Shown piece by piece: positions 1,888 through 18,654 of a stretch of DNA of 18,654 bases (within the stretch, counting starts at the first letter, position 1; every line of letters starts with the position of its first letter). Below the pieces are notes generated by a model. It was not told the DNA's origin. It made no database searches and saw only the letters and a list, made by a program, of their open reading frames with translations. The stretch is from Candidatus Thorarchaeota archaeon. GTDB lineage: Archaea; Asgardarchaeota; Thorarchaeia; Thorarchaeales; Thorarchaeaceae. Location: positions 1-18,654 of the forward strand of contig JAOUFI010000041.1 in assembly GCA_029858305.1 (NCBI GenBank). The letters run 5' to 3'. Both the position numbers and the translations under genes were made by a program.

Positions 1888-1951
1888 AGTGTGCAACCTC
1901 AGTTGAGCAGTATACAGTGGGTTATAGAATCTTATGGATATGTTCGATATA

Positions 1952-2233: not shown

Positions 2234-2414
2234 GTGGTGTTCCTCAGGATATATAGTCGAGTAGATGGCATTGCAGGGGTAGTGGCTTGTATAAAGTTAC
2301 AGATTGTATCTAGTGAAATACTTTGCCTATGAAACCGTATATACTCTATTAGGATATCTTAAGAAAAACTACTTACCTAAAAGTATGGGTATTATGATGC
2401 GAATTTGTGCATCC

Positions 2415-2774
2415 CTACACACGTTCAAAGGTGGCTCTAAGGGTGCCACCACAATACGTGCATTTCGCCTCCAATGGGCCAACCCAATCGATTCCTTCCT
2501 GAGATATGGATGCACCACACGACGGACACCTCTCTGGAAGACGCACGGTGGTCATTTGGGATCCATCTGATCTTGTCTGCCCGCGATACCGTTCAGGAAT
2601 GACAAAAGTGGGTGCTTCCATGGAGAATCCACGCGCTACGTTTCCAGCCACACGCGCCCCGCTGCGACAGACTGTAATAGCAATTGTAATGGCAATCACA
2701 ACAAATATGATAGGAACGATGATGAACATCATTCCAAAGATGTTGAAAATGGAAAAGGGATCCCACATTTGCAC
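2415..2774 (-). CDS. Hypothetical single-pass membrane protein with C-terminal zinc ribbon
   Basis: Long hydrophobic N-terminal segment; C-terminal CPSCG...CTYCGG; GAGG upstream of the GTG. Confidence 0.75.
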   Translation of the reverse strand: MQMWDPFSIFNIFGMMFIIVPIIFVVIAITIAITVCRSGARVAGNVARGFSMEAPTFVIPERYRGQTRSDGSQMTTVRLPERCPSCGASISQEGIDWVGPLEAKCTYCGGTLRATFERV

Positions 2775-2847
2775 TTAATATTCGCCTCATATTGTAGTGT
2801 TTTGTATCCAGCCAGAAAGTGACACCTTATATCTTTTGCATCTACAA

Positions 2848-3822: not shown

Positions 3823-4880
3823 CGAATTTTACCTCCTAGGCGTCTGATTGTTCCATCCAAGGAGAACTCATTCCTACGCTCCTCACCATTCTTGTCGACT
3901 TGGACTTCATACTTGAGGGCACCACCAACAGTTATGATTGAACCGACCCAAAGAACGCAGGATAATATTACAGCAACAATTGGAATCATCCATAGGTCGC
4001 CAGCGTCGGAATCAGCATGAAGGAAGAATATGAGAATATAGGGAAGAATCTGAAAGAGCGCACTCGCTGATATTAGCAAGAAGAAACTAACAAGCCATTT
4101 CTTTAGCCTGTACCTTTTTGTGACAGGGAGTTCACCAAGGAGTACTTCACCTGTTGCACCAGATACGGCAATCCTGAAAGTTCCTTTTTGGTATGAATAA
4201 CGCACAAGCCAGTAAGGAGCATGTGTGTACACACTTGACTCTGGAGTGATTTCTAGATGATGATCAAGCAGCTTGTCCATCTTCTTTAGTAGTTCAGCAC
4301 GCTCGCGATCCTTCTTATTTCTCTGTCCACGTTTAATGGCATCCTCATCACTGATTTCAGAGTTGAGTACTGGAGCGGTATCTGTCATTTCAATTGTGAA
4401 GTCCTGAGTTTGCGAATCTTCAAAGGAAGAGAGAAGCTCTTCTATGCCAAAAGTAGCGGCGTGTCTCCGAGCTATGACCCACTCTATCATATGCCCAGAA
4501 TCGTGTTTCTCAAATCGGCGATATTTTCTAGAGTCGCCAGAACCTTCTGTCTTGTAACCGAAGTGATATGATTTGAATTTACCTTCCACGCGAAAAATAG
4601 GAATCCATTGTAGTCGCGGTTCTTCCAGCTCAATATTTCTAACTACACTACTACCTACCGTTTTCTTTGTTGCAAATTCCAACCAGTTCATCACCGTAGT
4701 CTTGATGGTATTCTTATCCAGTCTATTTGGAAGAATAAAGTGACGAATCTCTTTTCCCCCAATTGTAAATGTGTATCCACAGTAGGGACAAGTAGCAATA
4801 ACATCATCTGCACCAAGAGGATAAGGTGCATTACACTTCTCACAGCGGTACTGAGTAATTGTGGCTGGCTTATTCGTCAT
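3819..4880 (-). CDS. Zinc-ribbon membrane protein (paralogue of 2848..3822)
   Basis: N-terminal CEKC...CPYC; WIPIF; APYWLVRYSY..IAVSGATG..GELP; two C-terminal TM helices. Confidence 0.8.
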   Translation of the reverse strand: MTNKPATITQYRCEKCNAPYPLGADDVIATCPYCGYTFTIGGKEIRHFILPNRLDKNTIKTTVMNWLEFATKKTVGSSVVRNIELEEPRLQWIPIFRVEGKFKSYHFGYKTEGSGDSRKYRRFEKHDSGHMIEWVIARRHAATFGIEELLSSFEDSQTQDFTIEMTDTAPVLNSEISDEDAIKRGQRNKKDRERAELLKKMDKLLDHHLEITPESSVYTHAPYWLVRYSYQKGTFRIAVSGATGEVLLGELPVTKRYRLKKWLVSFFLLISASALFQILPYILIFFLHADSDAGDLWMIPIVAVILSCVLWVGSIITVGGALKYEVQVDKNGEERRNEFSLDGTIRRLGGKIR

Positions 4881-4987
4881 CAGGACTATCTCGCTATAAT
4901 TTCCTTAACAATGGTAAGTAGAAGTGCAAAAGGCGCGAAATATGCAAACTCACTACGACCACATAGCTCAATATCCACCTTCGGAAC

Positions 4988-5029
4988 TTATAAAAGATTC
5001 ACAGATTAGACAACAAAGTCAGTTGGAGG
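4988..5029 (+). promoter_or_regulatory. Putative TATA box (TTATAAAA, 4988-4995) and ribosome-binding site (GGAGG, 5025-5029) for the gene starting at 5038
   Basis: Archaeal TATA consensus about 45 nt upstream of the ATG; GGAGG 8 nt upstream. Confidence 0.55.
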
Positions 5030-5037
5030 CCCAAAAA

Positions 5038-5397
5038 ATGCAGATACCTACATTTCTCTTAAGAAAACTCTACATCAAGGGAAGTCTCGAAAATGTCGAC
5101 GATGGTTTCTCGTTCAAATTAAAGAACTCGATATCATCAGGTACAGCTATTAGTATTGAACCCATCAAAGTGAATGGGAATGAATACCCACTTGATGCCA
5201 CTATTATCAGCTCTGCTGATGGTCAAATCATTGGCAGCGAGATTTCTGAGGGAAATTCTTTCCCCATTAAAGTTGGTCTTGATATCTCGATCCATGTTAA
5301 GGGGGATGCTCTTCCAGAAGGAGAACATACCATAGACATTTCGCTGACCACAAAGGAAGTTGGAAAACTCGCCTTTGATGTTACTGATTCAATTTAG
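5038..5397 (+). CDS. Small beta-rich hypothetical protein, resembling the accessory N-terminal domain of some HMG-CoA reductases
   Basis: ATG at 5038 with GGAGG is preferred over the GTG at 4924. IPTFLLRKLYIKGSLEN..GFSFKLKN pattern; the family link is from memory only. Confidence 0.7.
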   Translation: MQIPTFLLRKLYIKGSLENVDDGFSFKLKNSISSGTAISIEPIKVNGNEYPLDATIISSADGQIIGSEISEGNSFPIKVGLDISIHVKGDALPEGEHTIDISLTTKEVGKLAFDVTDSI

Positions 5398-5407
5398 AAA
5401 ATAGGAA

Positions 5408-5432
5408 TGCAGAGGACAGAAAGTCTTCTGCA
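5408..5432. terminator. Hairpin between convergent genes, possibly a bidirectional terminator
   Basis: TGCAGAGGAC-AGAAA-GTCTTCTGCA forms a 10-bp stem with one G-U pair on the + strand, 10 nt after the stop at 5397. Confidence 0.5.
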
Positions 5433-5451
5433 GTCTATATAATTGAACGCT

Positions 5452-5628
5452 CTATATAATAGATAGTAATAGAAAGACTAGAATGAGTAAGGGAGGAACA
5501 AAGCACATCAGAGATATCAGAACATTGCCTATCTTTTGACCTCTTTTTTCTGTAAACGGACAGACATGGATTTGGGTTTCACTCTTATGAAGTCTTATCT
5601 CCTTTTCTTCAGAGTTTTCACAAGACAT
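5452..5628 (-). CDS. 58-aa small protein with C-terminal transmembrane helix (absent from the ORF track)
   Basis: Translated by hand as MSCENSEEKEIRLHKSETQIHVCPFTEKRGQKIGNVLISLMCFVPPLLILVFLLLSII*. It fills an otherwise empty 340-nt gap. Confidence 0.6.
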   Translation of the reverse strand: MSCENSEEKEIRLHKSETQIHVCPFTEKRGQKIGNVLISLMCFVPPLLILVFLLLSII

Positions 5629-5735
5629 CTCTATTCTATTTACTCCTTGACCTCTATCTTTTGATTCTTTTGTTATTCATAACGGTAAGGGCAATAGTTT
5701 TCTGCATATGCAGTGTCTTTGTATCGGTGGAAAGT

Positions 5736-6647
5736 ATGTACGTCAAGATACGCCATGATGGTTCTCTCGGTATCGGGCGTGGTACAGAGGGAGATGCAGA
5801 GATCACTATGGGCTTTGGCGAGGCCCATATGGTTGCCGCTGCACTTGAAAAACTCGCCCAAACAGCTAGAAATCATAAACAGACCTATCTCAAGACCACA
5901 AATGTAGGAGGTGGAAATAAGATAGATTTCATGCGTGCTGATGATGGAACAATCACAATCTCAGGAGATAGACAAACATACATCTGCACAGAACCAGAAA
6001 TTCGTGAACTAGCAGAGAAACTTAGACATTTGCCACCAGTCGAGGTAGCACCGCCCTCAGATTATGTCAAGAAGATTACTCCATCAAATGGATTATGTCT
6101 AGTGCTCACAAATGGAGGCAACTCAATTAGATTACGATTGCCTGAAGCTGCCCTCCTGAAGACTGCAATTCGTAGCAGTATTGATTCAAGATATTATGAT
6201 GAAACCATAATGATAGGTCAAAGAAGAATTGTCGTTAGTAGAACAAGCGATTTGAAATGGCAACTCCGAGGTGGAGAAAATACCGTAAACTTCACAGCCT
6301 TTGAAATCGAAGCTTTAGTAGCAGGTCTTCATAATGGAATATTGGACGTTCTAATGGATCTAGTCAAGAGCTTTGGAGCTGATGACATTTCGGATATCAG
6401 AGTCAAGAGTGTCCTTCAAAGAATCGAGCAGGAGACTGCAAAAGTCTTCGGAGAAGACAAGAACTGGAAAGGAGTAGTCAAAGACCTCACGAAGAGAACA
6501 AAATCAGTAATAGGTATTGGCGAATTTGCTGATGAACGTGCAGGACGCTTCATCGACATGTGTAAGTATGTATATAGTAAACTTGATACGATCTTCATTG
6601 AACCTCTCTTCGAATTGTTTTCAAACACTTTTGTTGCAGAGACTTAG
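5736..6647 (+). CDS. Hypothetical protein with four beta-beta-alpha internal repeats and a helical C-terminal domain
   Basis: ATG at 5736 preceded by GGTGG is preferred over the TTG at 5661. Long uninterrupted ORF with a recurring strand-E-helix unit. Confidence 0.8.
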   Translation: MYVKIRHDGSLGIGRGTEGDAEITMGFGEAHMVAAALEKLAQTARNHKQTYLKTTNVGGGNKIDFMRADDGTITISGDRQTYICTEPEIRELAEKLRHLPPVEVAPPSDYVKKITPSNGLCLVLTNGGNSIRLRLPEAALLKTAIRSSIDSRYYDETIMIGQRRIVVSRTSDLKWQLRGGENTVNFTAFEIEALVAGLHNGILDVLMDLVKSFGADDISDIRVKSVLQRIEQETAKVFGEDKNWKGVVKDLTKRTKSVIGIGEFADERAGRFIDMCKYVYSKLDTIFIEPLFELFSNTFVAET

Positions 6648-6810
6648 TTCGCAGACTCAACAATTTATGTGAGATAACATAATGTTGCGAAGAAGAAGAG
6701 CAATGTAAAATATGAAACTCTGTCCATATCTATTATAGCTATTGTCAATCCCACAAGTCTTATGACAGGAACAGAATACGGCCATACCCTAGGATATTGA
6801 GGTTCAGTAA

Positions 6811-7674
6811 ATGTTGCGTATCGGGTATATTAAGCAACTTCAGAAGAGATGGGGTCGAAGAGCACCAAAACAGATGCTTCGCATGATGCGACTACATCGA
6901 ACACCCTTTCAGACAATTCTTCAAAATATATTCGGAGCATTAGAAGATGGCGATGGACGATTTGCTTTTCCAACCATAGCTGCAATTGCTAGGATGCGAC
7001 CCGATCTTGTTCGTGAAATAGTGAACGAAGGACATGAAGTAGCAAGTCATGGATATAATCACGTAAGATATCCGACCCTCAGTGCGAATGATAGAGAAAG
7101 AGATTTTGCCCTCAGCCTTCAAACCTACAGGAAACTGGGTATCGAGATCAAGGGTTTCCGAGCTCCTTATGATAATTATACAGATGATATGCCAGCATTA
7201 CTTGAGAAGTACAAAATAGTTTGGGACGGTGGATTTGGTTACCGTACAGAATATAGAGAAAAGACTCATTTCTTCAACTTCAATCTCAATGATCGACCTT
7301 CGAGTGTCACATACATCCCGCTAAATATTTGGAGTGATGACTTGATGATTGATGTTCATGGAATGAGCCCTGAAGTGATATCAAAAACATTGAAGGAATC
7401 TATTACTCAAGCTTCTAGGACAGAGGGAGTCATTATGTTTGATCTTCATCCAATCAGAATGGGGCAACCGGAGTTTGTAGGATGCCTTCGAGATATTTGT
7501 GTTCATGCGAATAGCCTCGGTGCCTGGTGTACTACTCCAAGTGAAGCGGTCAATTATTGGAAAGCACATAAGAAATGGAAGGGAGACAGCTCTTTCTGTC
7601 TACTTCTAACTGGAGATATCGATAATTGGGTGTTCTCAGATTATCTCAGAAGAGTGATATGGAAAAGAAAATAG
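6811..7674 (+). CDS. Polysaccharide deacetylase (CE4/NodB-like)
   Basis: HEVASHGYNH metal-binding motif, GFRAPY and DLHP; motif-1-like LLTGDID at the C-terminus. Confidence 0.85.
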   Translation: MLRIGYIKQLQKRWGRRAPKQMLRMMRLHRTPFQTILQNIFGALEDGDGRFAFPTIAAIARMRPDLVREIVNEGHEVASHGYNHVRYPTLSANDRERDFALSLQTYRKLGIEIKGFRAPYDNYTDDMPALLEKYKIVWDGGFGYRTEYREKTHFFNFNLNDRPSSVTYIPLNIWSDDLMIDVHGMSPEVISKTLKESITQASRTEGVIMFDLHPIRMGQPEFVGCLRDICVHANSLGAWCTTPSEAVNYWKAHKKWKGDSSFCLLLTGDIDNWVFSDYLRRVIWKRK

Positions 7675-7695
7675 TAAAAAATGGAGAGATAAGAA

Positions 7696-8142
7696 GTGGG
7701 TAAGTTTCTCGGGAGAATTCTTCGAATTCTGGCATGGATTGCACCTACCTATCAATTCAGAGCGAGTGTTTACAAAAAATGTGGCGTAAAAATTGGTAAG
7801 GGCATATACATGGGTTTCTTAGTCATAATTGACGGTGAATATCCTGAGTACATAGAGATTCAGGATTGGGCGAGTATAGGACCTGGAGTAAAAATTATGG
7901 CACATTCAGGTGGTAGTCCGTATCATCAGCATCATAAAATCTTCCATGAAGGACCCAAGAAGGTAGTAATTGGTAAAGGAGCATGGATTGCCACAGGTGC
8001 TATAGTTCTGCCAGGTGTAACAATTGGTGAGGGAGCTATAATAGCAGCAGGATCAGTGGTAAGTAAGGATATTCCACCATTTACTCTGTTTGCTGGAAAT
8101 CCAGCACGGATGATTCAAAAATTGGAACCCCAGAAAGACTAA
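7696..8142 (+). CDS. Left-handed beta-helix (hexapeptide repeat) O-acyltransferase
   Basis: VVIGKGAWIATGAIVLPGVTIGEGAIIAAGSVVSKDIPP...GNPAR, with the His in MAHS. Confidence 0.9.
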   Translation: MGKFLGRILRILAWIAPTYQFRASVYKKCGVKIGKGIYMGFLVIIDGEYPEYIEIQDWASIGPGVKIMAHSGGSPYHQHHKIFHEGPKKVVIGKGAWIATGAIVLPGVTIGEGAIIAAGSVVSKDIPPFTLFAGNPARMIQKLEPQKD

Positions 8143-8384
8143 GGAGAAAGTTTCTTCCTGAGAAGGGCTTTGAGATCACCTACAGACCAAATATCAACTA
8201 CCTCTTCATCTTCAAAGAATATTTCAAACTCATTTTCAAGCTCACTTACAATAATAAAATGGGCCATTGAATCCCAAGGTTCGAAATCTTTACGTTTTAG
8301 TTCATCACTAATTTCGTGTTTTTCCAAAAGAAGAACTTTTGATAAGATGTCAAGCAAGCGATCTTCGATTTCAGTCAATCTCAT
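8139..8384 (-). CDS. Acyl carrier protein (FkbH-associated type)
   Basis: 81 aa and acidic; WDSMAH carries the phosphopantetheine serine; ELENEFEI...SVGDL; ATGA overlap with fkbH. Confidence 0.9.
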   Translation of the reverse strand: MRLTEIEDRLLDILSKVLLLEKHEISDELKRKDFEPWDSMAHFIIVSELENEFEIFFEDEEVVDIWSVGDLKALLRKKLSP

Positions 8385-10216
8385 TCCTCTATTAGTTCAA
8401 TCCACTCTGGTACCTCAACTGTTTGATCTGCCAAGTTGAGAATCCAAGTTATGACATTATCATCAGATGGTGTATGCATTACAAATCCGTGACGTTTGTA
8501 GAAGTCTGCGGCAGGTGGATTCTTGTTAGTCGGTATATATTCACCGAGTACACGTTGAGCCTTTGATTTTCTCGCATCAGCCACTATTTTGGCAAGCATC
8601 GCAGTTTCAGCCGACCGTCCAATCACTCTGCAACTCATCAGGAAGGAGTCAATCAACCAATCACTAGTTTGCTTCCGAACGATAGCCACTCCAACTATTC
8701 CTTCATCGCCAAATCTATCCTTGACAGCCATGCTATATACAGCAGCTTCTTTTGACTGTCTGAAATTGTTTACTTCAGCATCCGTATAACGTTTGGTGGT
8801 CAGATTGAATTGATTTGTTTTACCTATCAGCTGAACTACTCGGGGGGCGTCAAAATCATTCACTTCATTCGCTGTGACTTTCAATTCAAGTGTTCGCAAG
8901 AAATCTTCAATTGAGGTCGCACTCTTCTCTAATTCGGACCTTTTTCTCTTACCGGCATACATCTCTCCGCGAGTTAGATCCTCTTTTGTGAGGGACAATA
9001 CATCGAACACCTTAAGGTTCTCAAGCATATCGCGATACAATCGCGGATTCTTTGGCATGTCGACAACTAGAACCTCGGGATGCACCTGTGATACCTGTGC
9101 TCTCTCAACAGGATTGTCATCTAAGAAGACCATACTGTCTAAGCCAATGTTGATTTCAGCGGCAAGTTCCTCAAGATTTACTACTTTGTTTTGCCAATTG
9201 ATTCTCAAAGCAGCAAAGTGCTCTTCCTTAAGAATTTGAAAGGGATGCTCACGAAATACTTTGACTACATCATCGTAATTGTTCTTACTACAAATTGCTA
9301 GAATGATACCTCGATTATATAGACTGAGCAGGGTCTTTTGAAACTCTACGTATTCGATTCCTGGAGCGGTATTTCCGAGCTTGATTCCCTCGAGACCATC
9401 CTCACCAATGATACCACCCCAGAGCGTGTTGTCTAGATCAAGCACAATGCACTTCTTTGTCTTGCCTCGCAAAGCCAAGATGTAACGAAGATATTCATCA
9501 ACTAGGATGGGAGTGAATTGCTCACTAAAGGGAACTGATCCACGATACCAAGTATTCCAATTAATTACTCGTGATTTGCCAAAATCACTTGCGATAGAAT
9601 CAAGATCTACAACAAAAGAACGGGATTTTTCTTGGAATCGTTGGGCAAGGGATGAATTCAATTCACCAAAGAATTGCAGGAAACCAAGTTTCTGTTTGTT
9701 ATCAACGATGCCAAAAGGAGTGAATGAGGGAATAATGAAATTATTCACCAGAATAAGAGCAGAAGTACTAGACTCAAGGGTGTCTACAAGTGAACAAATT
9801 CCCGCAATGACCTCTTTCTGGATATTCTTTCTTTCCTTTTCATTCATCCGAATGAATGAAGCAATAAACAGCTTATCAAGGATTGACCATGCATCAATTG
9901 AAAGGACTATCACATCAGGTGATAACTTGTAGAGGTTGGAATTCTTGTCCAATATTTCTTGACGATAAGTATTGAACCCTCCAACAAATGTTTTCACATT
10001 AAAACCAACAATTCTTGTTTTAATGTCAAGACATGCTGCAAGTGGTTCAAGTGTTGCGGAACCTATTACTGCAATACGAACTGCATTAGTATCATTCTTT
10101 GATACTTTAATACCGAGTGCCTCAATTTTCTTGTATGCACTCCAAAGATTCAGGTATGATGGATTTTCCCGTGCAGGTGCAAGAATATTGGAAATTCTCT
10201 CATCATCGCGGCTCAT
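8381..10216 (-). CDS. fkbH: FkbH-like HAD-IIIC glyceryl-transferase/phosphatase (N-terminal SGNH-like, HAD and GNAT-like domains)
   Basis: KCIVLDLDNTLWGG, CSKN, VFLDDNPVER, KTNQFNLTT, DRFGDEGIVG and FLMSCRV (the acyl-carrying Cys). Confidence 0.93.
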   Translation of the reverse strand: MSRDDERISNILAPARENPSYLNLWSAYKKIEALGIKVSKNDTNAVRIAVIGSATLEPLAACLDIKTRIVGFNVKTFVGGFNTYRQEILDKNSNLYKLSPDVIVLSIDAWSILDKLFIASFIRMNEKERKNIQKEVIAGICSLVDTLESSTSALILVNNFIIPSFTPFGIVDNKQKLGFLQFFGELNSSLAQRFQEKSRSFVVDLDSIASDFGKSRVINWNTWYRGSVPFSEQFTPILVDEYLRYILALRGKTKKCIVLDLDNTLWGGIIGEDGLEGIKLGNTAPGIEYVEFQKTLLSLYNRGIILAICSKNNYDDVVKVFREHPFQILKEEHFAALRINWQNKVVNLEELAAEINIGLDSMVFLDDNPVERAQVSQVHPEVLVVDMPKNPRLYRDMLENLKVFDVLSLTKEDLTRGEMYAGKRKRSELEKSATSIEDFLRTLELKVTANEVNDFDAPRVVQLIGKTNQFNLTTKRYTDAEVNNFRQSKEAAVYSMAVKDRFGDEGIVGVAIVRKQTSDWLIDSFLMSCRVIGRSAETAMLAKIVADARKSKAQRVLGEYIPTNKNPPAADFYKRHGFVMHTPSDDNVITWILNLADQTVEVPEWIELIEE

Positions 10217-10222
10217 GTTCAA

Positions 10223-10672
10223 TCACGTTCCTGGTAAAAGTTCTGAAACTTTCTCGTTTAGCAATTTCTGAAATACTATTGTATTAGCAGATTGGATTGA
10301 TGGAATTACACATGCGATTGCAACAGCATATTGCGAACTATGTGCGAGACTCAGAATTATTTCAATATCAGGCAAGTTGCTAATCGAAACATAGGGAGAA
10401 TCATTTTCATCGTGAAAAACATCAATGGATTTCATCGATAGCGATAGTCTTCTCGTCATCGCCTTGATTGTTGCTTCCTTTGCAGCAAATATTACTGCGA
10501 GATGCGGAAACGGATCTGAATATCTCGAGCAATAGTCCATCTCTTGTTCTGTAAAGATGCGATTGAAAAAGTTGGACTCAAGATCCAACTCTCTGAATCG
10601 TTTTATTTCGATAATGTCCACTCCAATACCGAATTTATCATCTTGTAGAAAATCTGCGTCCGCATTCAACAT
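10223..10672 (-). CDS. acpS: Holo-ACP synthase (AcpS-type 4'-phosphopantetheinyl transferase)
   Basis: GIGVDIIEIKRF, IFTEQE..YC, FAAKEATIKA and SLAHSSQYAVA. Confidence 0.9.
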   Translation of the reverse strand: MLNADADFLQDDKFGIGVDIIEIKRFRELDLESNFFNRIFTEQEMDYCSRYSDPFPHLAVIFAAKEATIKAMTRRLSLSMKSIDVFHDENDSPYVSISNLPDIEIILSLAHSSQYAVAIACVIPSIQSANTIVFQKLLNEKVSELLPGT

Positions 10673-10699
10673 GGTTCAATCTCTGCGAGGCTATGGGAC

Positions 10700-10710
10700 T
10701 CTTATAACGA
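10700..10710 (-). promoter_or_regulatory. Putative TATA box for acpS-fkbH-ACP
   Basis: TTATAA at 10702-10707, about 30 nt upstream of the acpS ATG. Confidence 0.4.
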
Positions 10711-10721
10711 TAATGGCAGGT

Positions 10722-12158
10722 CTATGCAAGTTCCTTTGCAGACGTTTCCAGAATTGCAGTAGACCATGGGTATCTTTGAAGGATGTTATTCATTAGCCTA
10801 CGAACCTTCAGTTCCTCAGAGGTGCCTGAATAGACTAAGAGCATCACAAGACCTCCTCGTGTTCGTTTGAATTTCTGATACATCGTCTTAGTAGTGTTAA
10901 TTGTGTCACACACAATCATGACTTCAGCATGAGGAATGTCTAAGTCACGTTCACCAACAGGAGACATAACAAGTACCTGTGCATTATCATCTTCTCGAAA
11001 AGCTCTTAGAACATCGGCTTTATCATGTGACTGGCCAGTTATCGTAAGAACAGCGAAACCAGATTTCTCGAGAACTTCTTTGATTTGCGAGACCATTTCG
11101 AGATAGGATGTAAGAACGAGTGTCTTGTTGTGTTCAGAAGCTATCTTCAATATTCTAGTCACTTTGGCAGAGATCGTTGGTAGTATTCGCCTGAGTTCAC
11201 TGATATTGAAATAGTTCTTTATGTAGTCGCCATAAAACATTCGCAAGAACTGCTTCGGGGGCATAGCGTAGACATATTTCCTGAGCATCAGAAGAGCCGT
11301 ATAACGTCCCTTCAGTTCTTCAGAGATTGGTAATCGCTCAAGAAGAAGATGCACTCTTCTAGAATCTCCATCAACAATGTCAAGATTGCCATCCTCTTCG
11401 AGCTCACTCATAATCTCAGCTCGGGTAGTGCGAATGAGTTCATCAAGGACTTTTGATATTGACCGTATTTTTGTGTCACTTACTGCGCTCACGGAAAGAA
11501 ATGTTGGTTCAAGAAAATCTTCGACATCAGTGCCATACAGATCTTCCATGGTTATGAGCTCGGCACCTTGTATGTACTCTCGAAGAGTTGCTAGTTCATC
11601 ACGAATCTCAATCTGCTCTTTAGTAAAAACAGCATGATCATCTCTCAAAGTTCCACTCATACCGATGACCCATTTTCCCTTTAGGAATGTAAGAAGAGCA
11701 GGCCATGGGTAAACAAGAGCTGTCCTCCCACCAGACCGTCGAACAAGTGTATCCACCTCATTGATGAGCACGATCTTGAACCGGTCGAACAGCGATGCAT
11801 CTTTTTGAAACGTGCTTGTTAGAACCTGTGGCGTTGCCACTATCACACGTTTCTCACGAAGATTATAGATTCGGTTTCCAGATTGGATACGAGAAGAGAG
11901 CTCCCCAAGATCTTCCTCAAGACCACCATACTCGCCTCTGAGGTAATCCACTGTTTCAACGAGTGAAGAAGATGAGTGAACTATAATCAGAATCCCAGCT
12001 TCGGGGAATTTTTCCGCTACAATCTGATGTGTAATGAATCGTTTTCCTAGACCGCAGTCTAACTCCAAAAGAAGAGGAGTGTCCTTCAGCTCACTGACCC
12101 TATCTAGAATATAGGATTGATAACCTCGTGGAGTATACTTGGGTTTTGGCTTTGACAT
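10722..12158 (-). CDS. SF2 (Hef/ERCC4-like) helicase-fold protein with degenerate motifs and no nuclease domain
   Basis: PRGYQ (Q motif), DCGLGKR (I), VATPQ (Ib), INEVD (II), MSGT (III), VGERDLDIP (V), QKFKRTRG (VI). Confidence 0.8.
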   Translation of the reverse strand: MSKPKPKYTPRGYQSYILDRVSELKDTPLLLELDCGLGKRFITHQIVAEKFPEAGILIIVHSSSSLVETVDYLRGEYGGLEEDLGELSSRIQSGNRIYNLREKRVIVATPQVLTSTFQKDASLFDRFKIVLINEVDTLVRRSGGRTALVYPWPALLTFLKGKWVIGMSGTLRDDHAVFTKEQIEIRDELATLREYIQGAELITMEDLYGTDVEDFLEPTFLSVSAVSDTKIRSISKVLDELIRTTRAEIMSELEEDGNLDIVDGDSRRVHLLLERLPISEELKGRYTALLMLRKYVYAMPPKQFLRMFYGDYIKNYFNISELRRILPTISAKVTRILKIASEHNKTLVLTSYLEMVSQIKEVLEKSGFAVLTITGQSHDKADVLRAFREDDNAQVLVMSPVGERDLDIPHAEVMIVCDTINTTKTMYQKFKRTRGGLVMLLVYSGTSEELKVRRLMNNILQRYPWSTAILETSAKELA

Positions 12159-12215
12159 TACTCAATCATCTGTCTAGTGTGTTATGAACCCATCTGAAAG
12201 CCCTTAAGAATTGAC

Positions 12216-12605
12216 CTAAAATTGTTTGAAGACTTTTGCAAGTGAAGGTCCCTTCACATGCATGTCAAATTCAAAGAAATGACCAAAGGGAACCATATGG
12301 ATCTCAAAACCTTGCTGCTGGAGTTTGTCTGCGACCTCATTAATCAGAGCAGCTGCAAAATCAGATTCTGCCTTGCTCTCATCAAGATGGGCAAACGAAT
12401 GGAGTATGATTCTATTACATGAAACCTTCTGAGAAAGCCATCTAATGTTCTTGACCATCTTACGCAACACGCTCGTATGGTTTGATAAATCAGCAACCTC
12501 TGAATGTATCCAGACAAGTACAGATTCCCCTAGTTGGGTCCTCGCATCTTCAGATTCATTTCGACGAAACCAAAAGCTCTCAAGGTGAAACATGAGTAGC
12601 CTCAA
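12216..12605 (-). CDS. Free-standing threonyl-tRNA synthetase editing domain (archaeal Thr-ED / DTD-like fold)
   Basis: MRLLMFH start (TTG at 12605, with GGGGTGA 7 nt upstream); VWIHSE..D, IILHSFAHL and PFGHFFEF..HVKG.SLA. Confidence 0.85.
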   Translation of the reverse strand: MRLLMFHLESFWFRRNESEDARTQLGESVLVWIHSEVADLSNHTSVLRKMVKNIRWLSQKVSCNRIILHSFAHLDESKAESDFAAALINEVADKLQQQGFEIHMVPFGHFFEFDMHVKGPSLAKVFKQF

Positions 12606-12658
12606 GGACAAATCACCCCTTGTATCAATCAACCAATGAATATGGATTCATCGTTTTT

Positions 12659-13525
12659 CTACAGACGCTCGCCATTTCCAGGCATGTCCGCTTCATCCTC
12701 TGCATCGAACTGTGTCGGTCCGCCAATAGGCTGATGTTCGATTTCAGCTTCGCCTCTGGGCTTTCGCGGGATTGCTTTCCCATGCACCCAAATTGTATTT
12801 GGAGGAATCGTTGTGTCCTTAGGAACCACAGTATTGGCACCCACAATCACATTATCGCCGATATCAGCTCCAGGTAGAATTACAGCGTTTGCTCCCACAG
12901 TGACATTGTTGCCCAACCGCACTGTCTTGAGGTAAAGGCGTCTGCCTTCATATACATGACCGCTCAGAATTGCATCATAACCAAAGAAGCAATTGTCTCC
13001 AATAATTGTGCGTTCCGGATTGAATAAGCGTCCATTGCCGACTACAGTGTTTTTACCTATCTTTGTGCCAAAAGCTTGATGCCGGGGTTTTGTGTCAAGG
13101 AATACAGAGAAGAATCCGGCAAAATAGGGAAAGAGGATGTAATAGACCTCATAGTATTCGTAAAGCAACCAAGCTTCTGATTCAGCCTCATAATAACCAT
13201 CCTCAAGAAATGGTATTCCTCTCCGTGAGAGCTTAAGCATAGCAAGTAAGAATCCTAGAAACACTGCATAGCATGTTAAGCCAACAGGAACAAAGAGAAC
13301 AAAGACCCAGAAGTATTGGATTACAAGGGGATCAAAGGTTCCAGTGAGGAGTGGCAATGCCGCCTCATAGAGTGTAGCAAACGGAAAGCCAAGGCTGTTC
13401 AAGAAGTTTGTAAAATGCAGCAGAAAGAATCCGAAAAATAATATTGCAGGGATTGCTGCTATGGTCAGACTCACCATTATAGAGAGGACCATGTACATTG
13501 TATATCCAAGAGACCTTGCTTTCAT
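12659..13525 (-). CDS. Membrane-anchored hexapeptide-repeat (LbH) acyltransferase-like protein
   Basis: N-terminal hydrophobic helices, then IGKNTVVG / IGDNCFFG..SGH / LGNNVTVGANAVILPGADIGDNVIVGAN; acidic tail. Confidence 0.8.
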   Translation of the reverse strand: MKARSLGYTMYMVLSIMVSLTIAAIPAILFFGFFLLHFTNFLNSLGFPFATLYEAALPLLTGTFDPLVIQYFWVFVLFVPVGLTCYAVFLGFLLAMLKLSRRGIPFLEDGYYEAESEAWLLYEYYEVYYILFPYFAGFFSVFLDTKPRHQAFGTKIGKNTVVGNGRLFNPERTIIGDNCFFGYDAILSGHVYEGRRLYLKTVRLGNNVTVGANAVILPGADIGDNVIVGANTVVPKDTTIPPNTIWVHGKAIPRKPRGEAEIEHQPIGGPTQFDAEDEADMPGNGERL

Positions 13526-13673
13526 AATTTACACTCCGGGTAATTCTCTTTTATTTGGTTTAGTATTATAGTTTGTTAAATGTCAACGGAATGAAGCAAG
13601 AAAACAGACCTCTTAGAAAGAGATATAGAGAGTACTTTGAAAGCGAGCGGCAATCTGAACAGGTGAATTTGCA

Positions 13674-14903
13674 ATGGATTATGACATGATTGTGGCAGGC
13701 ACAGGTCCAGCAGGGCTCATGACAGCCGAGCGTGCTTCTATGTACGGACTGAAGACATTGGTATTGGAGAAGCGCGCGGCTGTGACAGACTCTCTGATGG
13801 GCGAGCTTGTTACAGACAAGGCTCTGAAATTACTGAGAGTGAAATCAGACTCGGAGTATATAGGAAACAAGTTCACTTCTATTGTGGGAGAGAGCCTTGA
13901 TACAGGTTCTAACATTGTTGTTGATAGGACCCTTCTAGGTAACTCGTATTTGTTCGATGAAGATAAGTGCCAAGAGCTGATGCGCGATAGAGCTCTCGCT
14001 GATGGTGCAGAGTTTAGGTATAAGGCGAGGGTCAAATCTGTTATTAAAGAGAGCAGTGCAGTGGTTGGTGTAAAATATGGCAGTGACCAAGAAGTCAAAG
14101 CAAACCTTACTGTTGGAGCAGATGGATCTTTCAGTAGGGTATCTGAAACTGCAGGTTTTACACATCCGAAATGGCTTCTTAGCTATGGCTATCGATTCAA
14201 GCTCACAAACTGCAAGAATGTCGATCCGAACGTCGCTTATTTCTTCGTTGGAAAAGATATAGGTCTTGGTTATCTTTGGCTCTATCCTAGATCAGAGACT
14301 GAGGTCAATCTTGGCATAGGACGAGTGCCTTCTTCAAAGGAAAAATGGAGTAAGTTACCTCCGATGCAGGATGTGCTCCGCAAATATATGAAGACACATT
14401 CTGAAACAGAGAGCGCAAAGATTGCTTCCGTTAATGGCGGCGTTGTTCCCTGCGCGGGTATTATTCCAAGGTTCACCGATGCGGGCGTTGCACTCTGCGG
14501 AAACTCAGCAGGTCAGGTCTCCTCCATTGTCGGAGGCGGCGTGACCACATGTTTTCATGCGGGTCAGGTGCTTGCAAAGCACGCAAAACGAATGGTTGAT
14601 TCTGATGATTTCTCGAGAAGGAGTGTCTTTCTATATGAGAAAGAGTATAGAAAGTCCAAACTAGCATCAAATATCACAAATACCGGAAAAGGAATGTGGG
14701 CAGTATCTAAGTATGCCATGCTCAACGACCCGATTGCGGCAGCAGAAATTGTGCTCGGCCAATTAGATGCAAAGACACTCAATGAATTGATTCAAGGTCA
14801 TGCAAGTGTTGCGACCTACATGACCCTCATGACAGATTTCCTACCAATGGTTGCTAAAATCGGAGTGGGATACCTGAAGGCAATCGCTATGACAGGTCTG
14901 TAA
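13674..14903 (+). CDS. Geranylgeranyl reductase family FAD-dependent oxidoreductase
   Basis: VAGTGPAG, LVLEK, VGADG, GYLWLYP and CGNSAGQV..IVGGGV; AGGTGA ribosome-binding site. Confidence 0.85.
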   Translation: MDYDMIVAGTGPAGLMTAERASMYGLKTLVLEKRAAVTDSLMGELVTDKALKLLRVKSDSEYIGNKFTSIVGESLDTGSNIVVDRTLLGNSYLFDEDKCQELMRDRALADGAEFRYKARVKSVIKESSAVVGVKYGSDQEVKANLTVGADGSFSRVSETAGFTHPKWLLSYGYRFKLTNCKNVDPNVAYFFVGKDIGLGYLWLYPRSETEVNLGIGRVPSSKEKWSKLPPMQDVLRKYMKTHSETESAKIASVNGGVVPCAGIIPRFTDAGVALCGNSAGQVSSIVGGGVTTCFHAGQVLAKHAKRMVDSDDFSRRSVFLYEKEYRKSKLASNITNTGKGMWAVSKYAMLNDPIAAAEIVLGQLDAKTLNELIQGHASVATYMTLMTDFLPMVAKIGVGYLKAIAMTGL

Positions 14904-14904
14904 G

Positions 14905-15050
14905 CTTAAAGAAGTGTGAAGCAGGGGACACCCCCCCGCGCCCACCTGCTTCGTATACCGGTTTTTTGACCGGTCGCCCTGTATCATGCCCGTTGTGGAT
15001 TACCGTAAAGCTATCCACCACCGGAGTACTGCAGCAATCAGCTGCAAGAA
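14905..15050 (-). ncRNA. Candidate structured small RNA (four consecutive hairpins), family unknown
   Basis: GC-rich island in AT-rich surroundings, with stems at 14918-14952, 14957-14974, 14995-15018 and 15030-15046. The first stem pairs fully only on the minus strand (G-U pairs). TATA-like tract upstream and CTTCTTT downstream. Confidence 0.45.
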
Positions 15051-15069
15051 TTAGCAAAGCAAACGATAC

Positions 15070-15086
15070 TTAAATATATATTAATT
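15070..15086. promoter_or_regulatory. AT-only tract TTAAATATATATTAATT, putative (bidirectional) TATA region
   Basis: Lies about 50-65 nt upstream of ATG 15137 and about 25 nt upstream of the minus-strand hairpin array. Confidence 0.55.
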
Positions 15087-15095
15087 GTATACAGA

Positions 15096-15116
15096 CATCA
15101 AGTTAGTAACTTGATG
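15096..15116. promoter_or_regulatory. Perfect inverted repeat CATCAAGTTA-G-TAACTTGATG, putative operator
   Basis: 10-bp arms with a 1-nt spacer, between the TATA tract and the first TrmB-like gene. Confidence 0.65.
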
Positions 15117-15136
15117 AATCTACATACTACTCAATA

Positions 15137-16201
15137 ATGAGTGTGAATGAGTCTATGCTTAACAACAAGGAATTTACAGATGCTCTCAATCTGTTTGGAT
15201 TTATTTCAGGAGAGCAACGAGAACCACGGCTCCTAACCATCCTCAGTGTGATACTGAAACTGCAAACGAATCCACCTATGCCTCTTACTTTCTCTCAAAT
15301 CTACGAAGAAATTGAGAGGGAAGATTCAAGCGCTAGACTGACAAAGGCATGGATTCACAAAGTGTTGAAGGCACTTATTGAAGTGCAACTGATTCGGGTA
15401 GATAGTCAAACAGCTCACCGCAAGAGGTACATTGCTGATGTGAATACTGTGATGGCAGGTCTTGAACAGATAAAGAGTCAAAGAGTCAAACAACTTGAGG
15501 CTCAGATACAAGAATCGAAAGATGTCCTTAAAGAAGTGAGCGCCCTCGACTGCGGCAAGCTGGCTCAGGAATTTGTAAAAGACATTACAGGGCAGCAGCA
15601 AGAGATTAGCTCTCGGGTCGTTAGAGGAGTTGACGCGCTGCATAGAGTTCTGAGGTATAATATGCTCGACTTGGCAAAAAAGGGAGATATCATACGGGCG
15701 ACTTTACTATGGGCTGGACCTTGGATTGATTCAACTGCAGGAGAACGAATATTGAGATTCTTTGAAGCAGCCGAGAGAGGTGTAGACATTCGCTATCTTA
15801 TCTCTACAGATATATTCAAACTAGAAAACGAACAAGAAAAAAGAACAAACCTGCAGGCGATGGTGGGCTTGTTTCAAAAATTAATCGAAATGAGGGCACG
15901 AGGCAAGAAGTTCGACGCCCGTTTCTATCTCGGACCAAAGACATACAATCAGATTTCGCTAAATAGAGATAATATGGCTTTGATCATTACAGAAAATCCT
16001 GTTACTGCCACATGGATTACTAGGCGATTCAATCCAGATCTTATTGACAACGCCGTGAGATCGTTTGATAGAGACTGGAAGCGGTCCAAATCAATCTTCG
16101 ATCTCACACCGCAGGAGATGGCTGCTATGGGAGGAGTCCCCGGGGGAGTAATGAGTCAATTAGTAAATTCTAAAAGAAAGGAAGAAATAATTCATGAATG
16201 A
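15137..16201 (+). CDS. TrmB-like regulator paralogue 1 (wHTH, coiled coil, PLD-like effector domain)
   Basis: PLTFSQIYEEI...LTKAWIHKVLKALIEVQLIRVD..RKRY wHTH; AAERGVDIRYLI; NPDLIDNAVRSFDRDW. Confidence 0.75.
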   Translation: MSVNESMLNNKEFTDALNLFGFISGEQREPRLLTILSVILKLQTNPPMPLTFSQIYEEIEREDSSARLTKAWIHKVLKALIEVQLIRVDSQTAHRKRYIADVNTVMAGLEQIKSQRVKQLEAQIQESKDVLKEVSALDCGKLAQEFVKDITGQQQEISSRVVRGVDALHRVLRYNMLDLAKKGDIIRATLLWAGPWIDSTAGERILRFFEAAERGVDIRYLISTDIFKLENEQEKRTNLQAMVGLFQKLIEMRARGKKFDARFYLGPKTYNQISLNRDNMALIITENPVTATWITRRFNPDLIDNAVRSFDRDWKRSKSIFDLTPQEMAAMGGVPGGVMSQLVNSKRKEEIIHE

Positions 16202-16224
16202 AGGGAGAATAGAGGGCAGCACTG

Positions 16225-17127
16225 ATGCAAGAGACATGGGATGTATTAGAAACTGTTGGTTTTGATATGAAGAGGAAGGACATGATAGTCCTTGGCGCAC
16301 TTCTCAAATCACAGAGTGAGCCAAAAGCGTTCGTTGATTTTGAGTCTTTGAGAGAGCAACTTGCAAAAGATGAAGGAGGAAAAAAGGGGAAGGACTCACT
16401 CATCTATCGTAGTCTCTCATGGCTTGAACAGGCTGGATTGCTTCAGGTTGACAGAAGCGGGCACAAGCATGGGTACAATTCAAATTTAGGTATGATGCAG
16501 AAGGTCTTGAAACAGCGAATAAAAACAAAGTTGTCGGAATTTGCGAAAGAGAGCAAAGCTCTTGATGTTGATATTCATGTGATATCAGAAATCAATGCAA
16601 ATTCACTTGCAGCAGATGTGGTAGCACTGGCAGTGGGAACACAACTAGCAGAAAGACCTTTTTTCGCCCAAGGATGGCAGAACATAGTGAAGCTCCTAGA
16701 CGATAAAGTCTATAGAAACCTCAAGAAAAACGATATCATCAGATTCACATTGGAATGGTACGACCGCCCAAAGGAATTGGAAGAACCAAGAGTGGACATA
16801 ATCGAGAAAATACTAAAGGAGGGGGTAGAAGTACGAGGATTGGAACATCGAAAACTGGGGGGCAAAAGTTACCAGCGATTTGCTCAGCTATTTAGGATTT
16901 TCATTCAGAAAGGCTACAAGGTTGGCTTACGGGTGCGCTTGAGGGAGGATTCGACGTATCAATTTGTAGGACGCAGTTCTGAAGGAATTCTACTCATTGT
17001 TTCAGAGAATCCACTATCTGGAACATGGCTGCCGAGAAGTGCTAATCCAGAGCTGGTTGATAATGCAATTCAAAGCTTTGACAGGGACTATCTTGAAGGA
17101 TCTGAAATCTCTTCATTTGGAGAGTGA
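16225..17127 (+). CDS. TrmB-like regulator paralogue 2
   Basis: DSLIYRSLSWLEQAGLLQVD..KHGY wHTH; KEGVEVRGL; NPELVDNAIQSFDRDY. The start codon is uncertain. Confidence 0.75.
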   Translation: MQETWDVLETVGFDMKRKDMIVLGALLKSQSEPKAFVDFESLREQLAKDEGGKKGKDSLIYRSLSWLEQAGLLQVDRSGHKHGYNSNLGMMQKVLKQRIKTKLSEFAKESKALDVDIHVISEINANSLAADVVALAVGTQLAERPFFAQGWQNIVKLLDDKVYRNLKKNDIIRFTLEWYDRPKELEEPRVDIIEKILKEGVEVRGLEHRKLGGKSYQRFAQLFRIFIQKGYKVGLRVRLREDSTYQFVGRSSEGILLIVSENPLSGTWLPRSANPELVDNAIQSFDRDYLEGSEISSFGE

Positions 17128-17133
17128 CATTGA

Positions 17134-18096
17134 ATGACAGGGAGAAAATCTATTGAAATCCTGACAAAGCTCGGAGTGGATATGAATTCAAGTCAGATGA
17201 TGGTATTCAAAGCAATCATCACTGCGGCAAATGGCCTCTCAAGATCTGTCACCTATAAAGAAATAGTTGATGCAATAAAGAAGATTGCTGATAAGAAATA
17301 TACCAAGGCTTATGTGTATCGACAATTAAGCAGCTTGGAGAAAGAGGGATTCATCGTTGTAGATGCAATCCAGCATCCAAAACGATATAGTATTTCAGAA
17401 TCTACACTATCTTCTGCCTTGGCAAGAAAGAGTCAACATACTCTCTCGGAACTCAAGTCAAAGCATCAAGCTATCACCAGACAGCTGAAACTCCTAGAAA
17501 CTGTGGATCCCGAGGAATTGGCAATCACTGCCTACAACACTCTTGTCGGAATCTCTCCCGGTAGTGAGTCAACGATCATTGAAGGGATTGAGAACGTGAG
17601 GAGCACGGTGATTAGAGAGTTTGCAGATGGAGCCAAGCCAGGAGACTATGTTAGAGTTTTAGCTCCAGCAAGTACAATCGCAGAGGGCCTTGGGCCAGGT
17701 GGAATGACAGAACTTCGTATTATACAAGGAGCATCAAAGGGTGTAAAGGTACATGGAATGCTAACGCCTTTTCAGCAGCAGGAGATGAGCACCGAGCTGA
17801 TTGCGGGATTCCTCAAGACGCTCTCAGGACCCTTTTTTGAGGCAGTGAATACAGGAAATGTTAAGGTCAAACTCGCGAGGGAGCCTGTACAGACATATAG
17901 AATGGTCAGTCTCAATAATGATAAAATGCTCCTTTATCTTACTCATGCAAAAGAATCGGATGTTGCAGCCTTGATTCATAGAGGAAAAAATGCTGGACTC
18001 ATAGATGATGCAGTTTCAACCTTTGATAGACTTTGGGAGAATGGCGTGGATATTGCTGAGATTCTAGCAAAGATGATGAATTCTGGCAAGATGTGA
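17134..18096 (+). CDS. TrmB-like regulator paralogue 3
   Basis: VTYKEIVD...YTKAYVYRQLSSLEKEGFIVVD..PKRY wHTH; IIEGIENVRS; KGVKVHGML; NAGLIDDAVSTFDRLW. Confidence 0.78.
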   Translation: MTGRKSIEILTKLGVDMNSSQMMVFKAIITAANGLSRSVTYKEIVDAIKKIADKKYTKAYVYRQLSSLEKEGFIVVDAIQHPKRYSISESTLSSALARKSQHTLSELKSKHQAITRQLKLLETVDPEELAITAYNTLVGISPGSESTIIEGIENVRSTVIREFADGAKPGDYVRVLAPASTIAEGLGPGGMTELRIIQGASKGVKVHGMLTPFQQQEMSTELIAGFLKTLSGPFFEAVNTGNVKVKLAREPVQTYRMVSLNNDKMLLYLTHAKESDVAALIHRGKNAGLIDDAVSTFDRLWENGVDIAEILAKMMNSGKM

Positions 18097-18653
18097 TTAC
18101 TCTATCACCCAAGCTTTGTCCTTTGAGAGTGTCTGGAAGATATCATCACAGACAGCCTGAAAATCTTCGTAGAGGCCGTACTCTCCTCCTGCTGCATATG
18201 GATGACCTCCACCATTGAAGAGCTTCGCAGCCATATTGCACATAACGGTTTCTTTTCCTCGACGTATGCCTAGCATGCCACCTTGACTTAGCATCAAGAG
18301 CAAATCTGCAACCTCTAGATTTTCTCCATCCATCTTAGATTCTCAGGGTTAGAGGCATATGTACCCATGTCTGTCGATGTTAGACCACTAGGGATCTCAA
18401 CAACTCGCACAAGGCGATTATGTAAAATATGATCGCTATGACCGGCAAGAGCTTTTCGCATTTTCTTTGCTTTCTCTTTTCGATAGTGATCCACACGTTT
18501 GTCAAGGAGTTGATCTTTAAATTTGTGACTAACACTATCCCAAACGCCCCCAAGTCCACTCTCTGCAAGCTTTGAGAGAACAGGATACAGCACATCAAGA
18601 ACCTCTTCACGTCGATCAATTGCTCCAAACCGGAGGACGGACACAGCATCTGT
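18097..18653 (-). pseudogene. DHH/DHHA1 phosphoesterase-family gene (3' part), split by a 1-nt frameshift at about 18335; pseudogene or sequencing error
   Basis: ORF 18315..>18653 (open to the window edge) and ORF 18097..18333 (GIRR...AKLFNGGGHPYAAGG, DHHA1 motif) join if one A is restored in AAT CTA A[A]G ATG GAT. Confidence 0.7.
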
Positions 18654-18654
18654 G

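Follow-up and report, generated by a model that had tools for sequence, protein, structure and literature searches.

Several bacterial small RNA (sRNA) genes, including those of the OxyS/oxyR, GcvB/gcvA and SgrS/sgrR pairs, are divergent from the genes of their own regulators. RNAs of the CsrB/RsmY type sequester a protein through arrays of GGA loops; this protein, CsrA, is bacterial. The trans-acting sRNAs of the archaea Methanosarcina, Haloferax and Sulfolobus came to light through RNA-seq; most of them are restricted to one species or genus, and their structures are weakly conserved. Here we analysed a stretch of 18,654 nt from a Candidatus Thorarchaeota archaeon (assembly GCA_029858305.1, contig JAOUFI010000041.1, positions 1 to 18,654; hereafter the window), which carries on its minus strand, at about 14,905 to 15,050, a structured RNA element back to back with three tandem regulator-like genes, T1, T2 and T3. 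The element represents a real family of structured non-coding RNAs (ncRNAs) in Thorarchaeota, and a search of the literature on ncRNAs, sRNAs and RNA motifs with covariation in Asgard archaea and Thorarchaeota found no prior description of such an RNA. We are highly confident that the stretch is a genuine ncRNA gene. On balance, we lean towards a stand-alone ncRNA gene whose product is a trans regulator controlled together with the T1-T3 operon. That T1-T3 set the level of this trans-acting regulatory RNA through a shared control region is a close call and is proposed tentatively.

The locus is arranged like those of the OxyS/oxyR type. A structured sRNA gene, with its own putative promoter and terminator, stands back to back with a gene for a predicted DNA-binding regulator, and the short control region that the two share contains a conserved, partly palindromic element. 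The two marks of this type, divergence of the sRNA gene from a regulator gene and a shared control region, were both found. Unlike the OxyS/oxyR type, the Thorarchaeota locus has a putative archaeal promoter of the TATA/BRE (TFB recognition element) kind, no sequence or structural homology to the bacterial systems, and three paralogous regulators instead of one. Its RNA also survives without the regulators in one genome, and regulator control and mRNA pairing, in this case, are only inferred.

Like the sRNAs of Methanosarcina, Haloferax and Sulfolobus, the Thorarchaeota RNA falls in the range of 100-200 nt and is intergenic, with its own predicted promoter and oligo-T terminator. In contrast to them, it is defined by family-wide covariation and is known from sequence alone. 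It resembles the CsrB/RsmY RNAs in that an invariant G-rich hairpin loop is its most conserved feature, and differs from them in having one G-rich hairpin and no array of GGA loops. The parallel with TrmBL1/TrmB of Thermococcales (PMC4706686) lies in the predicted TrmBL2/TrmB-like fold of T1 and in a conserved element that is upstream with respect to one promoter and downstream with respect to the other. A palindrome at our locus, TACTCA-N4-5-TGAGTA, also shares the 6-N5-6 format with the TrmBL1 site TATCAC-N5-GTGATA (Thermococcales glycolytic motif, TGM). Unlike TrmB, T1-T3 score under the Pfam cut-off, and the known TrmB regulons consist of protein-coding sugar-metabolism genes and include no sRNA.

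The RNA gene lies in a 233-nt spacer between a geranylgeranyl-reductase-family (GGR) gene (13674-14903, plus strand) and the next plus-strand open reading frame (ORF; 15137-16201). Its parts, from 5' to 3' after the entry for the whole gene, are as follows.

14910-15049, minus strand: structured ncRNA gene, matched by covariance model R1 at 116.4 bits, with compensatory changes among homologues.
15030-15046, minus strand: hairpin H1, GCAGC/GCUGC (DNA TGCAGC/GCTGCA); the sequence varies between genera and the pairing is kept, with 5 of 5 pairs doubly changed.
15021-15029, minus strand: unpaired joint J1/2, GUACUCCGG; AACUCCG in most relatives, with C63, C64 and G65 invariant, and retained in genus g3.
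14989-15024, minus strand: hairpin H2, with outer stem CCG/CGG, inner stem GUGGAU/AUCCAC and a G-U-rich tip; swapped for another hairpin in genus g5.
14975-14988, minus strand: unpaired joint J2/3, GGGCAUGAUACAGGGC; G..UG.UA..GGGC is invariant in 23 sequences.
14957-14974, minus strand: hairpin H3, ACCGGU/ACCGGU; variable and dispensable, with 8 of 8 pairs doubly changed, and missing in genome G017 and several g3 sequences.
14918-14952, minus strand: hairpin H4, GAAGCAGG/CCTGCTTC plus an inner stem, with a run of seven G (14931-14937) in the loop; the most conserved part of the RNA.

The RNA probably starts near 15050-15055. Its 3' end in the window's genome is uncertain and lies at about 14905 or further.

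A preceding sequence-only reading of this DNA had described four back-to-back hairpins in a GC-rich island of about 140 nt. All four stems, including ACCGGU/ACCGGU, GUGGAU/AUCCAC and UGCAGC/GCUGCA, were recovered at the same places from the sequence and an inverted-repeat scan. The island is present but modest: the G+C fraction is 0.53-0.54 in the RNA region, 0.40-0.46 in the genes on either side and 0.32-0.35 in the promoter spacer. The tract noted after H4 (ACACUUCUUU) and the TATA-like tract before the RNA (TTAAATATATATTAATT) were also located. The minus strand of 14900-15055 folds with a minimum free energy of -62.5 kcal/mol, against -47.1 ± 3.8 kcal/mol for 200 dinucleotide shuffles (z -4.07), none of which folds as well. 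For the plus strand the energy is -49.9 kcal/mol (z -2.99), a value matched by 2 of 200 shuffles. In the minus-strand fold, H4 forms the 14 pairs that had been claimed for it around a G-rich loop, with a 1-nt bulge only and with two G-U pairs in GGGCGC/GUGUCC. The inner stem of H4 largely fails on the plus strand because these two pairs turn into A-C. All 45 distinct homologues compared fold better in the sense than in the antisense orientation (means of -55.0 and -45.4 kcal/mol), and the paired cells across homologues, read in the minus sense, hold 175 G-U versus 21 A-C combinations.

Homologues of the RNA were then collected; G000 denotes the window's own genome, a 3.04-Mb assembly, and g1-g9 are genera within its family. 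A BLASTN search for further copies, proposed by the sequence-only reading, returned the self match only in G000, and the H4 pattern had no matches in a viral contig collection; the element is therefore not a dispersed repeat or a miniature inverted-repeat transposable element. This identity was also rejected on the basis of one match per genome in 44 genomes, and a mobile or viral origin on the basis of the viral contig search. In the same genus, BLASTN found the stretch in 22 of the 27 other genomes with 74-89% identity. A pattern search gave 28 matches, comprising 25 Thorarchaeota metagenome-assembled genomes and 3 bacterial chance matches. A first covariance model built from 23 sequences matched 44 of 86 family genomes, with one copy each. 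By genus, matches were obtained in g1 (24/27), g3 (11/17), g5 (3/5), g2 (2/2), g4 (2/7) and g7 (1/7). G062 (g5) and G035 (g9) were missed by this model, and the same spacer of these genomes still carries ACGAAGCAGGG..G-run..CCCTGCTTC. At the G035 locus (L092), H4 in the spacer after the GGR gene is expanded into one long hairpin with two G-runs (GGGGGGG ... GGGGGG). More strongly altered versions of the RNA occur in three further genera. A second covariance model, based on 75 matches that represent 47 distinct sequences, gave matches in 14 of the 26 family genomes sampled and in none of the 124 genomes searched from 26 other families of the phylum. Among the genomes sampled, the RNA is confined to one Thorarchaeota family.

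The four-hairpin structure is conserved among these homologues. When the segments between conserved anchors were folded separately, a hairpin was obtained in 23/23 sequences for H1, 23/23 for H2, 22/23 for H3 and 23/23 for H4. The stem sequences often differ, for example GCAGC/GCUGC versus GACAACG/CGUUGUC in H1 and ACCGGU/ACCGGU versus GCCGAUG/CGUCGGC in H3. In the model-fitted alignment of the 47 distinct sequences, 90.2% of the cells hold standard pairs, compared with 39-41.5% when the partners are slid. Double changes occur at 28 of 40 pairs in these sequences, versus 13.5 ± 1.9 in shuffled alignments (0 of 500 as high) and 6-12 with slid partners; in the 23-sequence set, 15 pairs are doubly changed versus 6.3. 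Since a model-fitted alignment leans towards its own model, the count was repeated on 45 sequences aligned by MAFFT without regard to structure, the pairs being transferred from a single row. This alignment gave 81.7% paired cells versus 36-52% slid, and 19 doubly changed pairs versus 13.4 ± 1.8 shuffled (0 of 500) and 10-15 slid. It places H3 badly (54% paired), and RNAalifold recovered only H1 and H4 from the first MAFFT alignment. The otherwise invariant lower stem of H4 shows three independent double substitutions. Judged from these sequences, such substitutions, combined with H1, H2 and H3 sequences that are replaced outright from one genus to the next, would be hard to explain without an RNA structure. 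The covariation check on the spacers of relatives, which the sequence-only reading had suggested, thus yielded compensatory changes above the shuffled level. Two alternative pairings were rejected. The hairpin GGCAUG/CAUGCC, seen in the whole-sequence fold of one relative, is impossible in the window, G006 and G007, and a pairing of CAGGG in J2/3 with the 3' strand of H4 is not supported, as J2/3 does not track the H4 changes in G018 and G004.

Constraint is distributed unevenly along the RNA. The joint AACUCCG, the H2 stem GUGGAU/AUCCAC, the joint GGGCAUG.UAC(AGGGC) and, above all, ACGAAGCAGGG...G6-7...CCCUGCUUC are nearly invariant. H1 and H3 are constrained in structure only. H4 remains nearly unchanged while the neighbouring T1 drops to about 30% identity. 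A single-copy RNA that is kept with compensatory changes, and with an H4 near-invariant against a T1 at 30%, must therefore matter to the cells.

The remaining features of the locus lie upstream of the RNA gene and in the neighbouring genes.

15070-15086, no strand assigned: AT-rich TATA-like tract TTAAATATATATTAATT, 21-37 nt upstream of the model start at 15049.
15087-15116, no strand assigned: conserved upstream DNA block TTACTAACTTGATGTCTGTATAC, overlapping a perfect 21-nt palindrome (15096-15116); candidate regulator site.
15137 (more likely 15155)-16201, 16225-17127 and 17134-18096, plus strand: tandem paralogous genes T1, T2 and T3, of winged-helix plus PLD-like architecture with a predicted TrmB/TrmBL2-like fold.
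13674-14903, plus strand: geranylgeranyl-reductase-family gene (Pfam GGR_cat, NCBIfam GG-red-SF), convergent with the RNA gene, its stop codon 14 nt from H4.

Signals for transcription are found on the minus-strand side. Of the 44 homologues with full flanks, 38 have a TATA-like, AT-rich 8-mer 24-36 nt before the model start, against 19 when read in the opposite direction. A run of at least five T within 30 nt downstream is present in 25/44 homologues in the minus sense and in 0/44 in the plus sense, and in most relatives the RNA would end at a T-run abutting the GGR stop codon. The TATA tract at 15070-15086 is the probable TATA element of the RNA gene and may also be used by the divergent T1 operon. 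Further upstream lies a DNA block, ACT[A/T]ACTT[G/T/C]ATG, which 34 of 46 homologues carry 58-60 nt from the model start; with the range widened to 48-60 nt, the count is 36 of 46. The 21-nt palindrome at 15096-15116 and the 23-nt block are each unique in the genome. Seen from the RNA gene, the block sits upstream of the TATA tract. Seen from the T1 operon, it would coincide with the transcription start or follow it, the spacer having no other AT-rich tract. In Pyrococcus, the effect of TrmBL1 depends on where it binds: downstream of the TATA box it is a repressor, upstream of BRE/TATA an activator, and at a divergent promoter a single site can serve both functions (PMC4706686). By analogy with this position rule, we infer that T1-T3 may auto-repress their own operon and activate the RNA gene.

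The gene order, with a hexapeptide-transferase gene and the RNA gene on the minus strand and the GGR, T1, T2 and T3 genes on the plus strand (hexapeptide-transferase, GGR, RNA, T1, T2, T3), is the same in every sufficiently long locus. T1-T3 are paralogous to one another, with alignments at 28% identity (E 3e-26) and 26% identity (E 1e-18). The sequence-only reading had called them a TrmB triplet. Against the Pfam TrmB model (PF01978, cut-off 25.6 bits), T3 scores 14.4-15.9 bits and T1 and T2 are unlisted at E up to 1, and 0 of 34 T1 orthologues match it at E up to 0.01. No precomputed Pfam domain was present among the 120 listed of 196 homologues. No PDB match of T1 was obtained at E < 0.1 by single sequence or profile. 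Atlas leads to TrmB clusters scored only 0.88-0.89, and hhalign against two TrmB-domain proteins of the same genome gave probabilities of 0.14% and 8%. The AlphaFold model of T1 has a mean pLDDT (predicted local distance difference test) of 74.4. In a PDB search with this model, the top eight matches are TrmBL2 chains (E 8e-10 to 1.5e-8), the ninth is TrmB (3qph, E 3.9e-6), and PLD-fold proteins follow. The template-modelling scores are low (0.28-0.41), so the domain arrangement may differ between the T1 model and TrmB/TrmBL2. The name TrmB thus holds for the best matches of the T1 model, the only one of the three to which the fold evidence applies, and fails for family membership, none of T1-T3 reaching the Pfam cut-off. 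As modelled, T1 is TrmB-like in fold and architecture and not in Pfam family membership.

T1 probably starts at the ATG at 15155 and not at 15137, as orthologue alignments and the T1 profile both begin at about 15155. T1 would therefore have a 5' leader containing the palindrome TACTCA-N-TGAGTA (6-N4/5-6), which is located at 15128-15143, just before the T1 start, is imperfect in the window and occurs in 17 of 46 homologues. Perfect copies of this palindrome were found at three other intergenic sites of G000 (C27:2859, C114:1579 and C182:1952), with about 0.5 expected by chance. The genes beside these three sites are mutually unrelated and encode DUF2769, ferredoxin-domain, response-regulator and unknown proteins. 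One of the sites lies within about 870 nt devoid of ORFs of at least 65 codons (C114:1394-2263, L136), a region that could hold another non-coding gene.

In view of the signals above, we propose that transcription of the minus strand, beginning about 25 nt past the TATA tract, would yield an RNA of about 135-150 nt that folds into four consecutive hairpins. The RNA may act in trans, either by pairing with a pyrimidine-rich RNA or by binding a protein. Its most strongly constrained surfaces are H4 with the G-run loop and the joints AACUCCG and GGGCAUG.UAC. The RNA promoter would be co-controlled with the divergent operon of three TrmB-fold paralogues, the conserved block taking an activating position for the RNA promoter and a repressing position for the likely T1 promoter.

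Several points weigh against this proposal. Transcription of the minus-strand RNA is deduced from sequence signals. The window copy itself has no run of at least four T within 30 nt of H4 and shows only TTCTTT, because the GGR stop codon is 14 nt away. The count of 28 of 40 pairs stems from an alignment fitted to the model, and on the MAFFT alignment one of five measures, extra pair types, is not above the shuffles (66/500). The shuffle controls also overstate the significance since the sequences are related. An all-versus-all column scan gave no convincing non-nested covariation, hence no support for a pseudoknot. With regard to targets, when three segments of the RNA were scanned crudely for duplexes with 2838 ORF starts, the top scores reached about 4-5 standard deviations and no outlier emerged. 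The ribosome-binding site (RBS) of the hexapeptide-transferase gene, where CCCGGAGU is complementary to ACUCCGGG, was rejected as the target, the match being present only in G000 and its closest relative.

The link between the RNA and T1-T3 is one of synteny only. G001, which is 97% complete, keeps a structurally intact, divergent RNA with a G12 loop and has no T1-family match genome-wide. G003 has a T1-like gene 18 nt after the GGR gene and no RNA. The RNA is therefore not strictly dependent on the T1-T3 proteins. In the sequence-only reading, the RNA was a regulated output or an RNA partner of the three regulators; the fixed synteny and the conserved shared control region agree with this idea, and G001 and G003 speak against an obligate partnership. 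G066 has neither the RNA nor the T1 family. A 369-aa gene was observed beside the GGR gene in place of T1-T3 in G001 (L129, C4, 2946-4055) and in G066 (L131), with the RNA in the former and not in the latter. We take this gene to be DHH/DHHA1-like by its GGGHPYAAGG motif.

The RNA could instead be a scaffold or partner in a ribonucleoprotein, with H4, its G-loop and the joints binding a protein, perhaps T1-T3 with one hairpin each or an unrelated one, and with no pairing to mRNA. Such a role would fit the pattern of conservation, which covers the joints and a whole hairpin and not one short seed, while the peripheral stems vary or vanish. It would also fit the fixed synteny and the family-restricted range of the two components, as the RNA is found in 14/26 and the T1 family in 24/26 family genomes and both in 0/124 genomes outside. 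T1 has a PLD-like C-terminal domain, and nucleic-acid-binding enzymes also use this fold. However, G001 has the RNA without the T1 family and G003 a T1-like gene without the RNA, and the best structural matches of T1 are the DNA-binding TrmBL2 and TrmB. We regard a ribonucleoprotein role as unlikely.

Less likely still is a sensing or switching RNA, in which the G-loop of H4 would pair with the 3' tail or the AACUCC joint and control the RNA's own termination, or a read-through antisense to GGR. The 25 nt after H4 are pyrimidine-rich, with a mean fraction of 0.78 versus 0.50 in the genome, and reach at least 0.72 in 34 of 45 sequences versus 3.8% of random pieces. The tail of genus g3 holds GCCCCC(U)C, complementary to the loop GGGGGGGC with a predicted duplex energy of -17 to -18 kcal/mol, and that of g1 holds ACUCC opposite GGGGU; these G-run/tail energies mostly reflect composition, because a G-run pairs with any C/U-rich tract. 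Because the T-run lies directly against the GGR stop codon, a transcript reading past it would run antisense to GGR. In six g3 loci (L059-L062, L071 and L104), GCCCCC(U)CUCUC was observed 20-35 nt after H4, mostly with no run of at least five T within 30 nt. Counting against a switch, the window's clade (G000, G007 and L107) lacks the pyrimidine-rich tail, no non-nested covariation was seen, and the difference between g1 and g3 is a single evolutionary event. A loop-tail pseudoknot or switch is thus offered as a hypothesis, given the clade without the tail and the absent non-nested covariation.

A more speculative reading treats the RNA as an Asgard-specific riboregulator that mimics an RBS. 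It would titrate small ribosomal subunits or mask Shine-Dalgarno sites, with a loop-tail pseudoknot as the switch and its level set by the TrmB-fold proteins. Together, the invariant G-run loop and its 3' flank (GGGGGGUG) can form 8 bp, two of them G-U, with the 3' end of the organism's own 16S rRNA (GAUCACCUCCU), and the invariant AACUCC joint and the CU-rich tail resemble an anti-Shine-Dalgarno sequence. We consider this reading a long shot.

A DNA-level element is very improbable. The stems could be operator palindromes for the neighbouring regulators or belong to the 3' untranslated region (UTR) or terminator of GGR, since they are DNA palindromes by construction and the element always follows GGR. 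A similar Bacillus hairpin (L068) is an ordinary terminator-like hairpin with a T-run. A plus-strand GGR terminator or 3' UTR was nevertheless rejected, and the earlier claim that the element is not such a terminator is borne out by the strand asymmetry of pairs and folds given above, by T-runs found in the minus sense only and by a TATA tract at a fixed distance. The conserved unpaired joints are not explained by palindromes, and the RNA persists in G001 without the regulators.

The chance is similarly slim that the RNA is a divergent member of a described class, such as a guide sRNA or another housekeeping RNA, missed by the Rfam models. Asgard RNAs are poorly sampled in Rfam, and a single-copy RNA kept in most of the family genomes searched is what a housekeeping RNA would look like. 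In the Infernal/Rfam scan proposed at the outset, no family of Rfam 15 matched the whole window at the gathering score or 14700-15300 at E up to 10, and 12 homologous loci gave three weak matches at E up to 5, all of them outside the RNA. ARAGORN found no tRNA or tmRNA gene in the window. The RNase P RNA of the genome is located elsewhere (C44:45535-45873, 157 bits), as is a signal recognition particle (SRP) RNA candidate on another contig (G000 C50:9890-10201, 95 bits), consistent with the earlier statement that no tRNA or SRP features were recognised. The SRP RNA candidate falls just under the Rfam cut-off of 96.5, so that standard annotation would miss it. By inspection, an H/ACA guide sRNA, which would have a hairpin with a large pocket for pseudouridylation, a K-turn or K-loop and ACA conserved 3' of its stem, was rejected, as H4 has a 1-nt bulge only and ACA follows H4 in the window's clade only; relatives read UAC, GAC, AUC or UCC at this position. 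A C/D box sRNA, whose conserved C box (RUGAUGA) and D box (CUGA) would lie close to its ends, was also rejected by inspection, as relatives carry AUGGUAC or AUGUUAC where the window has AUGAUAC, and a conserved D box is absent. The lack of conservation of these two strings, the lack of Rfam and tRNA matches, the presence of RNase P and SRP RNAs elsewhere and the 0/124 matches in other Asgard genomes all argue against a missed class. The earlier inference of an undescribed minus-strand sRNA is instead supported by the single copy, these negative searches, the compensatory changes, the strand asymmetry and the minus-strand signals.

A small protein read from the nearly invariant AUG in J2/3, which opens a 48-codon frame in the window, has a probability close to nil, as the frames span 2-56 codons in the 43 of 47 homologues that have one (four lack the start), fall in all three downstream phases because of indels in H3 and the G-run, and carry substitutions that are pairwise compensatory.

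For studies of RNA regulation in Asgard archaea, the ncRNA gene is a concrete object that can be cloned: it is about 140 nt long, its promoter region is defined, and three candidate regulators lie beside it. RNA annotation also gains a new family, with an alignment and a model ready for use. Should the G-loop turn out to address the ribosome or a conserved protein, this would bear on translation and gene control in the lineage nearest to eukaryotes. The RBS-mimic reading, if true, would reveal a new way of controlling translation globally, in the prokaryotes most closely related to eukaryotes.

Elsewhere in the window, at 8381-10672 on the minus strand, a 613-aa FkbH_N-domain protein adjoins a 4'-phosphopantetheinyl transferase (ACPS). 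Such a pair is more typical of bacterial polyketide loci and was unexpected in an Asgard archaeon.

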